A stretch of 64,000 bases of DNA. Origin: Eledone cirrhosa. Its lineage: Eukaryota. Each line of letters opens with the position of its first letter. Position 1 is the first letter of the stretch. Below are positions 4,618 through 44,622 of the stretch, in pieces. Location: positions 17,856,001 to 17,920,000 of the forward strand of contig OZ024747.1 of the NCBI GenBank assembly GCA_964016885.1, in the 5' to 3' direction. The notes beneath the pieces are model-generated. The model was not told the DNA's origin, made no database searches, and was given only the letters and a program-made list of their open reading frames with translations. The position numbers and the translations under genes were made by a program.

Positions 4618-4811
4618 AGTTTATCCCGGGTTCAATCGGGGGTAGCCACAGTAAGTAAGGTACTCAATAGAAAGCAGAGTATAAATATTTGATATAGAAC
4701 AGCTTCTATAGGACTAGAACTGTTTCATTCGGGAGAAATCATCAGGAAGTCCCGATGATTTCTCCTGAATGAAACAGCTCTAGTCCTGTAGAAGCTTTTC
4801 TATATCAAATA
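4618..4811. mobile_element. TA-inserted palindromic PLE-terminus fragment with hammerhead; same family at 34161-34285 and 34465-34640
   Basis: A ~68-bp tail is followed by inverted arms 4686-4747/4750-4811. Arm consensus is cttc-CTGATGA-t ttc tccc gaa t-GAAACAG..CTGTA-gaag. The tail ccgggttcaatcgggggtarccacrgtaagtaaggtactcaata recurs at 34.2 and 34.5 kb. Confidence 0.72.
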
Positions 4812-6002
4812 TATATATATATATATATACAGATCTATCAGTCAATGTGTGTGTGTGTGTGTGTGTGTGTCTGTGTGTCTGTGTGTGTGTGTGTGTGTGT
4901 GTGTGTGTGTGTGTGTGTGTGTCTAGAAAGTCTACTTTTATTATTCGTATCATACATACACGTTTAATTTAAAACCCAACCCAAACATTAACAAGATTTT
5001 CCAATAATCTAGAAATGGAAGGACTAACAGTCTGGTATATTTTCGCCTCCACATCGTGCCTACGGAAAGGACTGAATTAGACAGCTTCTTGGGAAATGAT
5101 TTGAATATTTGAATATATTTGAAATAATTTTTGATCTTGCGATATAATAAATAGCAATATTTACTTGAAGCAAAGTAACTTTTCAAAATAAGACTAAGAA
5201 ACCACATGGGACTCACATAAGAGATGTTGCTCCAGCATGATATGAACTCATCTGATTAATGATATGTTAACAGCTTTGCTGTACCCACTCGACTATTTCG
5301 TCTCTAAAAGGCTACAATTTTATCATTTTGAGGTCGAAAAATAAAGTACCAGTCCAGAACTGTTGTTTATTCTTCCTCTCTCTCTCTATCTATCTATCTA
5401 TCTATATGTATCTCTTTCTCTCTCTATCTGTCTACCTCTTTTTTCTCCGTTCTCTTATTCTTTCTCTCCAGAAGAAATTAGCTGTGTTCCGACCTAGAGA
5501 AGTATGAGCTCCGCCATGTTTGAAATGTCCATTATGTCTTCATCTGGAGATAAGAGTCCTTTATCTTACCACAAAACTACACAATATCACTAAATAACAT
5601 TGATCACTCAATATAGTGGTCTTCTATTGATTTCAGTGATGAATATTCCAGTTATTCAGTCAACAATCAACAGAACTACTCAGTGAATTTTAGTATGAGA
5701 GGTTGAGTATTCCACAGATATATGTATCCTTAAAGCAATACTTAAGCAGAATCAACATGTGAATTATCTGTATAATGCATCCAGTAAGTTTCCAAGCATT
5801 TTCCGTCTCCTTAATTTCACTTATCAGCTTTAACATCAAAGACGGAACTTCTAAGCAGTCTCATGAACTGTTAGAAAGAGCAGTCAAAACTCCCCAAGAT
5901 CATATCCTATCGAGTTTTTCTTTTTTTCTTTTAATAGGATGCATTAGATAATGTGATCCTGATGTATTATGGATGTTTACAACCTTGAACACCTGTCATT
6001 AT

Positions 6003-6625
6003 AGGTGGATTGGCAGTATCGGTAGAGACTCGGACACCTTGCTTCACAGCATAGAGTTACGGCCCTTTACGGTCTGAGTTCAAATCCCGCCGAGGTTAAC
6101 TTTACCTTTCATCCTTACGGGGTCGATAAAATAAAGTACCAGTAATACATTGGGATAATTGCTGGCCTTGTGCCAAATGTAGAAACAATTATAGGTGTGC
6201 TCAAAATGGCGGTGGATTGGTAGAATCGTTAGCACGTCTGACAAAATTATTTGCGGCATTTGTTGTGGCTCTTTACATTCTGGTTTCAAATCCTGTAGAG
6301 GTTCACTTTGCTTTTCATCCTTTCAAGGTCAATAAATAAATATCAGTCACGTACTGGAGTCGGTATAATCAACTTTCCTCTTAACTACAAAATTGTTGGC
6401 CTTCTATAATTAGAAACTATTATAGGTGGAACAAGGGCGGTGGATTGGCAGTATCGGTAGAGGGTCGGACGCCATGCTTTCCAGCATAGTTACGTCCCTT
6501 TACGATCTGAGTTCAAATCCCGCCGAGGTTGACTTTGCCTTTCATCCTTACGGGGTCGATAAAATAAAGTACCAGTAATGCACTGGATAATTGCTGGCCT
6601 TGTGCCTAAAGTAGAAACAATTATA
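6003..6625 (+). mobile_element. Three consecutive family A SINE copies
   Basis: Copies at ~6003-6192, 6207-6420 and 6436-6622. attataggtg recurs at the junctions. Confidence 0.85.
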
Positions 6626-9139
6626 GGTGTACTCAATCATAATAGACCTCGAACTAAGCCATAACAATTTACAATTTGATACTATGGTAGAAATATTGTA
6701 CAATAGAGTCAAAGCCGAGACATTATGATTGCAAATGCTTGTACCAGGTTACACAACAAATTCATCAAGATAGAGCATAACTCAAAATGCATTGTGGTAT
6801 TTGTTTTGATTCTCTGCACTTTGAATTCAAATCCCTCCGAATCAATATCCCCTGATATCAGCGTCCCTCCAAGATCAACATCCCGCCGAGATCAACATTC
6901 TTTCAAAATCAACATTCGTCTGGCATCAAAATCTCTCCAAGATTAACGTCCTTCCGAGATCAACGTGCTTCCAAAATCAACATCTCTCAGAGATGAGCGT
7001 CCTTTCGGAATCAATAAAGAGGAGTGCCAATCCATTGGCTGAATTGTTATAGCATTAGACGAGTTGTCTCGCAGTATTTGTTTTGGTTCTTTGCGTTCCG
7101 AGTTGAAAATCCGTTGACTGGTTTAAGATCTGCACCTGACTCTTGGAGTCCACTCAACGGAGTCCACTCAACGGAGTCCACTCTGTTGTAAATATTCGGT
7201 TGTGATTTCTTGCTTGAGGATATTATCCACTCTTCTTCCTAAAGCCTTGAAACGGGGTCATGAGCGTTGCCCTCCTCCATGACAAAACAGTAAAAACAAG
7301 CAATACATAAACTCAGAGAAAAGCACAGCAAAATAACACAATATAGACTGAACATGATATCAGTTAACCCTTTTAATATAATTAAAGCAGCCAACCATTA
7401 TTGTTGTATGTTTATTTACTGCTACACTACACAGTATTCTGACGTCAATGTCTAACAAAGTTCGTCTGTATACATTTTTTTTTACAACTTTTCATTATCA
7501 TAATTATTATCATCATCATCGTCATCCTCAACAACAACAACATCGTCGTCGTCATCGCTGTCGCCGTCCTCACCATCATCATCATTGACATTATCATTTT
7601 CATTATATCAACATTATCATCGTCATCATAATTAATATCATTATCATCATCATTATCACCTTCCTCATTATTATTATTACTGTTGTTGTTGTTGTTGTTG
7701 TTGTTGTTGTTGTTGTTGCTGTGGTCATTGTTGTTGTTATTATCATTATTATTATTTATTTTATTATTATTATTATTATTATTATTATTATTATTTATTT
7801 CATTCTTCTTTTAGCTTTAGTTTTAATACACGACTGAGTAATACTATTTTGGCACTTCGAAATCGAAAACAAAAAAAGGAAAATGGAACAAAAAAATGTC
7901 AGACTAATAAAACAACAATAAAAATGAAGAACACCAACAACAACAACACAAACAACATCAACAACAGCAACATCAACTACAACAATAAGTAAAAAGAAAA
8001 ATTAATCACTGCGAAATTAATCACTTCAACCTTTTAACTGTTTTATACGTTATGTATATATGTATGTATATGTGTATGGATGGATGTATATATCTATGTA
8101 TGTAGCTATGTATGTATGTGCATGTATGTATGAATGTATGTATAAATGTATGTATGAATGTAAGTATGTATGAATGTATATATGTATGTATACGTGTATG
8201 TATTATGTATTTGTATGTATGTAGGCATATATGTATATATGTACTTGCCTGTTGGTATGTATATATGTATGTATGTACTTATATATGTTGATTGATAGGT
8301 AAGTAGGTAAATAGCTATGTATGTATATATGTATAAAGGCATTTATGTATGTATGTATGTAGGCATGCATGTATGTGTGTGTGTGTGTGTGTGTGTGTGT
8401 GTGTGTGTGTGTGTGTGTGTGTGTGTGTGTGTGTGTGTGTGTGTGTGTGTGTGTGTGTGTGTGTGTGTGTGTGTGTGTGTGTGTGTGTGTGTGTGTGTGT
8501 ACTAACGATAACATTAACACAGCATTCTTCAAATTAAAAGTGTATATGAACCCATATCAAATATGTTTGTCATACAATAAACCAAAATTTATTCGCGTTG
8601 CTTTTACGCTGTAGTCATAAAACAGTTGCTACAGCATCGATGTAAGAGCCGTACATGCCTGCATTCTACTGTTGTGACAGAAAAGTGAAATCTTGATTTT
8701 ACCATGCTGATGTATGTCTTCTTTATCTTGGAAGCCAAGGACGGGGAGACATCGCATCATTGGAAGCCACGGACGGGAAGAATGAAGACGCGTGAAAGAT
8801 AGTCGGCTCTCACCACATATTTATATACGCACATACGTATGTGTGCAAACAAGGATGTCTTTTCATACGTGAATATGTAGGTTTTCATATATGTACGTAT
8901 ACATGTATGTATACACATTTCTATGTCTCCGCGCATATATACATATATATATATATATATAAGTTGAAATAAAATGAAAACGAAATTTCATTTCTCACTC
9001 TTAGTACGGCACTTACTTATCGTTTTCGGTATGCCTGACCGACTTAACTCACTCGATATGCAAATTAGGCTGCTCAGCCGTTAATTTTCAGAAGGAAAGT
9101 ATATACTTTCGAACGTTCAACTATCTGGCAGAAGGGTAT

Positions 9140-9182
9140 ACGGTGCTGATGATAGCTAACAAGCTTGAAACTAGTACATCGT
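9140..9182 (+). ncRNA. Minimal hammerhead ribozyme motif
   Basis: acggtg-CTGATGA-t agc taacaa gct t-GAAAC-ta-GTA-catcgt. Stem I has 6 pairs including one G.U; stem III is the palindrome ACTAGT. It lies in a ~360-bp insert (8962-9315) between TA tracts. Confidence 0.78.
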
Positions 9183-43494: not shown

Positions 43495-43953
43495 GCTAAG
43501 AACATGAAGGCCCACATCACCAGCAGCCCTGGCAGCAACACCCCACCAGGGTGCTCTTGCCGTAAGCCTGAAGCTTGCCTCCTTCAACAGCAATGCAACA
43601 CACCAACTGTAATCCAAGCCATACGCAAGGGGAAATCCGACGTGTGGCTTATGTATCGACGAACGAATAACTATCCTAAAGAGTTTACGCAATAGTGATT
43701 GCCTAAACACGAGAAGTGGATTTTTCACACGCTGTCCACACGTCACCAAACATCTATTGCATAACTACAAGGCTCCGGACTGATTCTTTGTAATTTTATT
43801 TTTAATTTTTTTAATTTTATTTTCAACCTAAAAACTTTCCGGACTTTCGCAGTTATCTCTCTTACACCTCCCGCACGCAGTCTCTGTGTGAGCTGACCGA
43901 GTTTCTGCGCAGCGCGTTCGTACGGTTGTCCTTCCTGTTCCTATAACCATACA

Positions 43954-44001
43954 CATCCCGAGCTGAAGATCCGCGAAGGTGAAACAATTGTTCTCGGTAT
44001 G
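43954..44001 (+). ncRNA. Minimal type I hammerhead ribozyme motif (mirror copy on - strand at 42764-42811)
   Basis: ccgag-CTGAAGA-t cc gcgaa gg t-GAAAC-aatt-GTT-ctcgg. Stem I ccgag/ctcgg, short stem II, palindromic stem III (ACAATTGT), GUU triplet. Confidence 0.75.
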
Positions 44002-44078
44002 GTGAACTAACTTTTGTGTAACCACTTCTATATATATATATATATATATATATATATATATATATATATATATATATA

Positions 44079-44622
44079 AAACGAAGGAAGTGTGGTAAGG
44101 AACCAGATGGACCATAACGCCCCAGAGTACTCAATACTTAGGGTAATAGACTGGGTAATATGAAAATGTTTAACACCGACGGCAGAGCTCAAGCCGTTTC
44201 GACGGCTATTTCTGGAGTCCAGAAATAGCCGTCGAAACGGCTTGAACTCTGCCGCCGGAGTTAAACATTTTCCTATATATATATATATATATATATATAT
44301 ATATATATATCACATATGAAACGGAGAATCAGTGGTGCGACGAATTAAAATTTATTAGTGCTCAAACGGCCTATCGCATACGGACCCTTTAAGCATCCCA
44401 CACCAATTATATATATAAACAAAGAAGGGGTAGTAAGATACCAGGTGGACCAAAACGCACCAGAGTACTCGATACTTAGGGTAATAGAGTGGGTAATAAA
44501 AAAAGAGCCAGCTCCGGCCATTTCGACAGCTAGATCCGAACTCAGTCGTTCTTCCTCTCACTTTCAACTAGCTTTCAACTGTCGAAACGGCCGGAGTTCA
44601 GCCGTCAGGGTCCTGACTCTTT
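44079..44622. mobile_element. Three further short TA-inserted PLE-terminus fragments (44079-44273, 44311-44410, 44418-44622); related fragment at 4438-4487
   Basis: Separated by TA tracts. 44162-44272 is a palindrome centred on tctggagtccaga. The tail cagagtactcratacttagggtaatagas occurs at 44122 and 44461. Hammerhead 3' halves read GAAACGGC...GCCGTC. Confidence 0.62.

Follow-up and report, generated by a model that had tools for sequence, protein, structure and literature searches.

A covarying predicted hairpin in the tails of Hydra-clade Penelope-like retrotransposons of Eledone cirrhosa, a candidate signal for internal starts of reverse transcription

Small structured RNAs that position a reverse transcriptase (RT) on its template include the 3′ stem-loops of long and short interspersed nuclear elements (LINEs and SINEs), the 3′ untranslated region of R2, hepadnavirus epsilon and the telomerase template boundary elements. 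For Penelope-like elements (PLEs), the origin of the tail found on one side only of an insert and of the head-to-head repeats that accompany it is an open question, and PMC8557442 calls for mechanistic work on it (here and below, statements on cited papers refer to their accessible parts). In vitro, the protein of the Poseidon element PAc from Anolis starts reverse transcription inside the RNA, at two sites on either side of the tail, both strands being extended, and was modelled as a dimer (PMC11167929). Here we analyse a stretch of 64,000 nt from the 3.0-Gb, microsatellite-rich genome of Eledone cirrhosa (assembly GCA_964016885.1, contig OZ024747.1, positions 17,856,001 to 17,920,000; hereafter the window), in which a first-pass annotation had noticed an RRGYACTC motif in the tails of inserts bordered by TA microsatellites and had suggested that it is a conserved cis-signal. 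The inserts are, as judged from sequence, the 3′ ends of Hydra-clade PLEs, and the motif makes up one side of a predicted hairpin whose pairs covary.

Self-comparison of the inserts shows the order (TA)n, single-copy tail, head-to-head arms, (TA)n, which matches the published PLE layout with its inverted truncated copy and one-sided tail (PMC8557442, PMC3846280). With the Hydra clade, whose endonuclease (EN) is C-terminal (EN+; PMC8557442), they have in common protein motifs and (TA)n targets as well as these two structural features, and possibly a hammerhead in the pseudo-long terminal repeat (pLTR). The endonuclease fragment of family F4 in the window displays CxCX5C, as well as CxxC and CxH around a conserved E and N, and no CCHH, as do the aligned endonucleases of the hairpin-linked families; a CxCX5C linker, CxxC/CxH and absence of CCHH are the defining traits of the clade (PMC8557442). 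A C-terminal GIY-YIG-type endonuclease follows the RT within one open reading frame (ORF) shorter than 3 kb in F4 (L131-L140), F0 (L047), F1a (L138) and G3 (L071). DKT replaces DKG (SDKT in L033, L138 and L071), and the RWK-type N-terminal motif reads RWR in F4, F1a and G3 and RWK in L131(-), L133 and L040. The families linked to an ORF are F0, F1a, F4, F5b and G3 and, tentatively, F3 (via L089) and F41; the clade assignment covers these families, F1b, F2, F11 and G1 being without ORF link, and is based on protein motifs and similarity, as Pfam gives Hydra-type RT/EN fragments no score. Other identities were discarded: the CX2-5CxxC linker plus CCHH of Neptune and Nematis is absent from the hairpin-linked endonucleases, and in all linked families the endonuclease is C-terminal and not N-terminal as in Naiad, a clade that also lacks a canonical hammerhead. 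In L135, F3 seemed to be connected with a Nematis-type ORF; the connection was discarded, since a TA tract lies between them. Matches to a hammerhead core pattern are present in F2, F3, F4 and many metagenome loci, while five loci searched gave no Rfam match at the gathering score; no standard core pattern was found in family F0. The stem II region of the hammerhead-like motif of F3 (28764-28842) is unusually long relative to those in File S2 of PMC8557442. Most F0 copies are minis of ~190 bp whose inversion point is nearly constant, at a small GAAA-containing hairpin (window copy 44162-44272).

The inserts had been called otherwise unrelated, a description that does not hold given the shared clade of the ORF-linked families; that their surroundings cannot be aligned stands at the DNA level and fails at the protein level. 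Endonucleases of hairpin-linked families are 28-54% identical, and blastn among 25 hand-picked representatives from the source genome aligned four pairs, leaving 21 groups. Together with the Hydra-clade protein traits, these non-aligning groups lead to the conclusion that the inserts belong to one clade, and are neither one family nor unrelated. The nine sites of the motif in the window represent six families rather than nine independent ones, since 4658, 34205 and 34508 are 80-84% alike and 44125 and 44463 are 84% alike.

The exact 8-mers are found at 4658, 28611, 32354, 32832, 34205, 34508, 42707, 44125 and 44463, which confirms the nine sites reported initially except for a shift of one base in one of them (44124, correctly 44125). 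Their distance to the TA tract is 26-54 nt, in agreement with the 26-55 bp first given, and they lie in the tail outside the inverted arms as described, with the exception of the insert at 34205, which has no inverted arm. On the element's own strand the motif reads GAGY-RCYY, the opposite strand to the RRGYACTC form, and the 8-mer comes close to a palindrome (GAG-YR-CTC). Counted on both strands, there are 17 matches in the window versus 7.8 ± 2.8 in 100 shuffles, none of which reached 17. Four further matches (1036, 23107, 41597 and 48007) have no hairpin beside a TA end and are probably due to chance. The initial list was incomplete, as it missed a G-C variant of the hairpin at 53219. It also included a degenerate copy at 17830 that in fact starts at 17828, fails the hairpin descriptor and is unsupported; it is possibly a decayed hairpin, and a genome search with it returned only the self-match, a result that does not demonstrate rarity.

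Positional enrichment beside TA junctions, proposed as the test of the motif, was assessed in a genome sample of 100 stretches of 10 kb (1 Mb), 92 evenly spaced over 15 contigs and 8 adjoining the window. Outside the window there are 198 unique GAGTRCYY sites, 76 of them located 25-65 nt before a TA tract; 500 random placements gave 12.3 such sites on average and 22 at most. The 40-49 nt bin holds 41 sites where 4.4 are expected (4427 TA-tract flanks). Enrichment depends on strand: among non-palindromic forms, 55 of 136 are near TA in the element sense and 10 of 136 in antisense.

GAGY-RCYY forms the 3′ strand of a predicted hairpin with a bulge, the pairs of which covary; it consists of RCUC, a variable stem-loop, a two-nucleotide U-N bulge, GAGY and then RCY. 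ACTC occurs 6-55 nt upstream of the motif in 79 of 103 near-TA sites compared with 21 of 203 sites far from TA. With a 2-nt 3′ bulge, 58 of 87 sites have at least 3 bp in the upper stem; the proportion is 1-7% when the bulge is set at 0, 1, 3 or 4 nt. When counted by cluster, ACTC is upstream in 13 of 24, and 8 of these 13 have at least 2 bp at the 2-nt bulge versus 0-1 otherwise. The upper stem sequence varies by family with pairing kept, loops range from 2 to more than 60 nt, some families use GCTC/GAGC instead of ACTC/GAGT, and the outer pair is A-U in 22 of the 25 hand-picked representatives. A motif-free search of the sample yielded 88 tail-plus-arm inserts, of which 43 (13 of 40 clusters) carry the hairpin in the tail; the reverse strand of the same 88 gave 8 hairpins. 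Because a MAFFT alignment of 16 hairpins lost register, no covariance model was used and pairs were counted on anchored positions. An Rfam search of the whole window at E ≤ 1 gave 234 matches, the best 150 of which were all microRNA models below the gathering score. The proposal of a conserved cis-signal in PLE tails is supported, in the form of a base-paired structure on the other strand rather than of a linear 8-mer. That the motif would be the remnant of one diverged family, the outcome of coding constraint or chance is scarcely credible: five of the nine window sites do belong to two families and the linked families share one clade, yet the divergence of the endonucleases, the dependence of pairing on a 2-nt bulge, the covariation of the stems and the enrichment beside TA tracts largely refute such a reading, the representatives fall into 21 non-aligning groups, and coding constraint is rejected because full units have the hairpins upstream of the point where the ORF begins. 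A splice donor on the + strand, a candidate prompted by the F2 sequence, fails in GAGCACTC families. The hairpin was also compared with stem III of the Hydra-clade hammerheads (File S2 of PMC8557442), several of which read actc-n-gagt and thus have the same four pairs. This identity was rejected: unlike stem III, the tail hairpin is not preceded by GAA, includes a bulge as well as an upper stem, often has G as its next letter, which gives no cleavable triplet, and sits downstream of a separate hammerhead.

Full units carry two such hairpins. In many loci the hammerhead core is followed by hairpin 1 at a distance of 37-66 nt, and the conserved start of the ORF is preceded by hairpin 2 at ~40-70 nt. 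The structure extends to other hosts. An RT alignment identified 115 relatives in metagenome contigs, the best 80 of which were kept and form 58 families. GAGYRC was found before the ORF in 21 of 24 family-level metagenome regions and after the hammerhead in 11 of 20. Selection on GAGYRC and an upstream CTC only (5 rows without CTC were dropped) resulted in 39 hairpins from 25 families, one of the 39 rows being a hammerhead stem. In 37 of them Watson-Crick pairing is present at the first upper position (C-G 21, U-A 16) versus 18.8 in shuffles, kinship being ignored; the second is so in 24 and the third in 23, with ~10 each in shuffles. All 39 have the U-N bulge, 35 a G-C outer pair, and 31 a TA 2-6 nt 5′ of the stem. 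The upper stem-loop of the window hairpin at 32354 is letter-identical to that of hairpin 2 in metagenome locus L224, and the pair at the base of the hairpin is G-C in L224 and A-U in the window. A 31-nt stretch in this area (window 32358-32382, L224:430-460) is 90% identical while the rest of the 260 nt compared is dissimilar, a situation that reflects either deep conservation or transfer. As to the PLE termini of other animals, with which a comparison had been suggested, the same hairpin was recognized by eye at the 3′ ends of the published coral and sea-cucumber consensus sequences Hydra-2_Amil and Hydra-2_Ajap and twice at the 5′ end of Hydra-1_Ajap; in Hydra-1_Crog it has a mismatch, and Hydra-1_Amil and Hydra-1_Obim are unclear (PMC8557442 supplement). 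A search of this supplement with six 8-mers gave 22 matches, of which four are the Hydra-clade hairpins noted by eye.

The hairpin signal is not general to TA-targeting PLEs. Many of the hairpin-less tail-plus-arm inserts link to Neptune-type (flank clusters 22, 25 and 39) or Nematis-type (56/57) endonucleases, and no hairpin was found in the tails of Neptune- and Nematis-type elements of the same genome, a negative set drawn from a Pfam GIY-YIG search with clade names assigned by eye from linker motifs. A DNA search for one hairpin-less family, of a kind insensitive for common repeats, found nothing. Three Neptune-type tail families share another word, ACYCGTG (L053:3300-3355, L054:4337-4370, L196:2210-2290), placed in a small GTG/CAC stem in two of them; 16 of its 51 sample sites are at most 80 nt from a TA tract. 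It is possibly a clade-specific counterpart of the Hydra-clade hairpin.

The position of the insert ends relative to the hairpins suggests a function. Inserted copies stop at a TA in one of two places: either hairpin 1 follows after 0-12 nt in the 3′ direction (short end), or hairpin 2 does so after 3-8 nt (tail end). Short ends fall at −12..+3 of the hairpin 1 stem base in 67 of 72 copies, mostly with a few letters of TA microhomology, ends more than ~115 nt upstream of hairpin 1 being outside the detection range; in the window, the short arm of F4 stops at a TA 4 nt 5′ of the 42707..42730 stem. The 78 tail ends lie 30-89 nt after hairpin 1 at a distance fixed per family. Read-through units with hairpin 2 located 3-8 nt after the tail-end TA were obtained for F1a (L138), G3 (L047, L186), F5 (L040) and L133. 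Twin hairpins 58-74 nt apart are present in 12 metagenome loci. Eight metagenome pLTR matches are not interrupted by the end of a contig, and five of these terminate 0-4 nt before a hairpin. What lies between the two end positions is the tail, and therefore it alone keeps hairpin 1, once and at a family-fixed distance. Family F5 (L105:7648-7812 and other copies) has a distance of ~88 nt between hairpin 1 and the tail end, departs from the standard letters after GAGT, and contains a separate GAGTRCTC ~45 nt from the end without local partner. With insertion ends taken as proxies for the starts of complementary DNA (cDNA), a conserved base-paired structure thus occurs at a fixed offset from cDNA starts, as is characteristic of RNA elements that position an RT. 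The hairpins could instead have another job, in ribonucleoprotein assembly, translation of the downstream ORF or assistance to the hammerhead, with ends nearby due to UA-rich single-stranded stretches. Their placement between hammerhead and ORF in many loci is compatible with such a role, which we nevertheless deem very improbable: TA sites are dispersed through the 100 nt upstream, only 36 of 192 being at −8..+1, yet the short ends cluster at the stem, and the pairing of one end of each kind would go unexplained.

This pairing holds almost throughout. Head-to-head inserts, with ends classed separately, comprise 67 tail+short, 3 tail+tail and 2 short+short (n = 72), where independent ends would give 36, 18.5 and 17.5 (p ~3e-13). 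As every copy type terminates shortly before one of the two hairpins, these likely indicate to the enzyme its starting point, and we consider it probable that they act as an RNA binding site that sets the starts of reverse transcription. A readthrough or circular RNA would carry both hairpins, each of them bound by the RT-endonuclease protein, possibly a dimer, which would cut (TA)n on both strands. Each nicked end would pair with UA just 5′ of a hairpin and prime a cDNA running away from it, and the two overlapping cDNAs would then be joined head to head. With two cDNA starts on one RNA, only the tail arm would keep hairpin 1. We infer that ends are cDNA starts, that the fold forms in RNA, that protein binds it and that two protomers act on one RNA. 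A more specific model, plausible though somewhat short of probable, is that transposition proceeds from two starts, unlike LINE priming: one RNA would bear two of these phylum-spanning bulged hairpins, each would recruit one protomer of a telomerase-related RT-endonuclease dimer, and both ends of a cut (TA)n target would prime cDNA close to a hairpin on its 5′ side.

A different origin of the paired ends is a single cDNA, begun at the tail end, that would fold back and serve as its own template; in this single-stranded cDNA the hairpin would stop synthesis or guide the GIY-YIG nickase to the adjoining TA, giving the short end. This route generates tail+short pairs by construction and predicts a longer tail arm, and the near-palindromic form of the 8-mer speaks for it. 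The literature attributes the tail to EN-mediated resolution (PMC8557442) and reports self-priming palindromes (PMC3846280), and the D. virilis endonuclease required the tail in DNA (as cited in PMC11167929). It is nonetheless rather unlikely. Among 19 long inserts, the tail arm is longer in 13 and the short arm in 2 (L137, L003), with 4 undecided, and 4 of 10 F4 loci contain a lone short-ended arm (L133-L136); short ends can therefore be first-strand starts, and fold-back produces neither configuration without later deletion. The same motif at the same offset at both ends points to one process, covariation requires a single-stranded state, and in another clade both tail ends map to RT starts in RNA (PMC11167929). 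Of the three roles that the first-pass annotation had offered, RT template recognition fits best and GIY-YIG nicking is a live rival, while the paired ends agree poorly with RNA 3′ end formation. In the latter case the hairpins would mark cleavage just 5′ of the stems, by self-cleavage or a host nuclease, followed by LINE-like priming at the free 3′ end. Ends at a fixed small distance from each stem are expected from such processing, and a genome does not distinguish an internal start from a processed end; but cleavage before hairpin 1 would leave an RNA without tail, and inserts combining a tail end with a short end would then require the deliberate pairing of two different RNAs. As the motif is also without known catalytic core (no Rfam match at the gathering score in the five loci searched) and PAc initiated internally without cleavage (PMC11167929), we give this explanation little credence.

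Several observations weigh against a hairpin that positions RT at two starts. The tail arm is longer in 13 of the 15 decidable inserts, as fold-back predicts. Hairpin 2 of F4 (L131, L140) is irregular by eye, with a long loop and a mismatch, and it is unclear in the F2-type unit L050 and in the second family of L131; three of the eight metagenome pLTR matches do not stop before a hairpin. The 25 source-genome representatives were chosen with a pairing descriptor, and isolated hairpins fold weakly (z −1.1 to −2.9). Counts of G-U versus A-C are about even in the unbiased metagenome set, and therefore tell apart neither the folding strand nor RNA from single-stranded DNA. Among the other 18 matches in the PMC8557442 supplement one is hairpin-like, in Naiad_Mmer, ~400 nt from its end. 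Finally, the Poseidon precedent comes from another clade and its starts are non-homologous to the cut DNA, while UA/TA microhomology would operate here.

The features of the window are collected in Table 1. The hairpin-bearing tail ends are all on the - strand (10 of 10, 4658-53226; binomial p 0.002). No strand clustering of tails was seen inside the 10-kb sample stretches (52 same, 68 different), and the uniform orientation in the window may be due to chance or to a local effect of host transcription. The dispersed ~190-bp repeat, with copies 85-93% identical, is probably a SINE.

Table 1. Coordinates of features in the window.
Feature	Position	Strand	Remarks
Family G3 short end, without motif	4504..4580	-	Stops just 5′ of the expected hairpin 1 start
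Family F2 PLE end	4618..4808	-	Tail 4618-4688, head-to-head arms 4689-4808, in (TA)n
Motif in F2 end	4658-4665	-	40 nt from TA tract
Hairpin 1 of F2 end, then ACCT	4658..4680	-	ACTC, 2-bp upper stem, TT bulge, GAGT
Hammerhead-like core in F2 end	4718-4745	-	Core-pattern match
Degenerate copy	17828..17850	-	Hairpin-like upper stem and TT bulge; lower stem broken; unsupported
Family F3 PLE end	28585..28894	-	Tail 28585-28674, decayed arms 28675-28892
Hairpin 1, F3	28611..28664	-	36-nt loop, TC bulge; motif 28611-28618
Hammerhead-like motif, F3	28764-28842	+ arm	Long stem II
Family F1b PLE end	32301..32726	-	Tail 32301-32394; arms 32395-32726, 99% identical
Hairpin 1, F1b	32354..32382	-	4-bp upper stem, TA bulge
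Family F11 PLE end	32778..33461	-	Tail 32778-32881; arms 32882-33031 and 33314-33461, split by ~190-bp repeat copy 33130-33319
Hairpin 1, F11	32832..32875	-	6-bp upper stem, GT bulge
Family F2 tail-bearing end without inverted arm	34162..34291	-	Hairpin 34209-34227, motif 34205
Family F2 tail-bearing end	34465..34604	-	Hairpin 34512-34532, motif 34508, hammerhead-like core 34574-34601
Family F4 Hydra-clade PLE	42671..44028	-	Tail 42671-42736; the long arm extends to ~43494 and the inverted short arm to 44028
Hairpin 1 variant, F4	42707..42730	-	4-bp upper stem, 1-nt bulge
Hammerhead-like core, F4	42773-42802	-	Core-pattern match
F4 C-terminal endonuclease fragment, frameshifted	42989..43494	-	CxCX5C linker, CxxC, CxH; no CCHH
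Hammerhead-like core, F4	43963-43992	+	Core-pattern match
Family F0 PLE end	44079..44273	-	Tail 44079-44161, arms 44162-44272, motif 44125; one substitution in the 5′ strand of the hairpin
Family F0 PLE end, decayed arms	44418..44621	-	Hairpin 44467-44490, motif 44463
G-C hairpin variant (GCTC/GAGC)	53219..53243	-	38 nt from microsatellite
Dispersed ~190-bp repeat	6002-6193, 6435-6625, 12805-12990, 13680-13871, 24965-25141, 33130-33319, 35838-36025, 41319-41498, 54660-54849		
PLAC8-family ORF, intronless-looking	40435-40818	+	Pfam PF04749, E 1.7e-20
Exon-like stretch, possible GH18 chitinase	~63250-63360	+	Resemblance by motif

The elements and their tails are known; the hairpin is a real, putatively cis-acting structure of a known clade, undescribed within the literature searched. 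That search covered accessible text including PMC8557442, PMC11167929, PMC3846280, PMC4209133 and PMC13282606, with subscription papers, Repbase and supplementary figures outside its range, and retrieved no description of the hairpin; the text supplements of PMC11167929 likewise gave no match. The accessible text of PMC8557442 gives no motif or structure for the tail, although the hairpins are visible in its Hydra-2_Amil, Hydra-1_Ajap and Hydra-2_Ajap consensus files, and reports a tail of 30-40 bp, whereas the tails of the source genome are ~60-110 nt and bounded by two conserved hairpins. PAc resembles the present elements in having two internal starts that define the tail, cutting and extension of both strands, a predicted dimer and a stem-loop near the start (PMC11167929). 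It differs in clade and in that its starts are inside the ORF, in an AC-rich stem-loop without target homology; no cross-family motif or twin signal is reported for it in the accessible text. Compared with the structures that recruit RT to a template in other systems, the Hydra-clade hairpin is located 3′ of the presumed start, from which it is not copied, and it occurs twice, both copies being used together in one insertion.

The hairpin can serve as a marker by which Hydra-clade remnants without coding sequence are detected and their orientation read; extrapolation from 92 sites in each Mb of the sample puts their number in the genome on the order of 10^5. With a short signal that covaries and keeps the same offset from the two ends, the origin of the tail and of the head-to-head organization becomes directly testable. 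If true, the two-start rule would account at once for the tail on one side only and for the head-to-head arrangement, and would provide a portable signal of ~25 nt that sets internal RT start sites, which bears on the choice of internal templates by telomerase-related enzymes.

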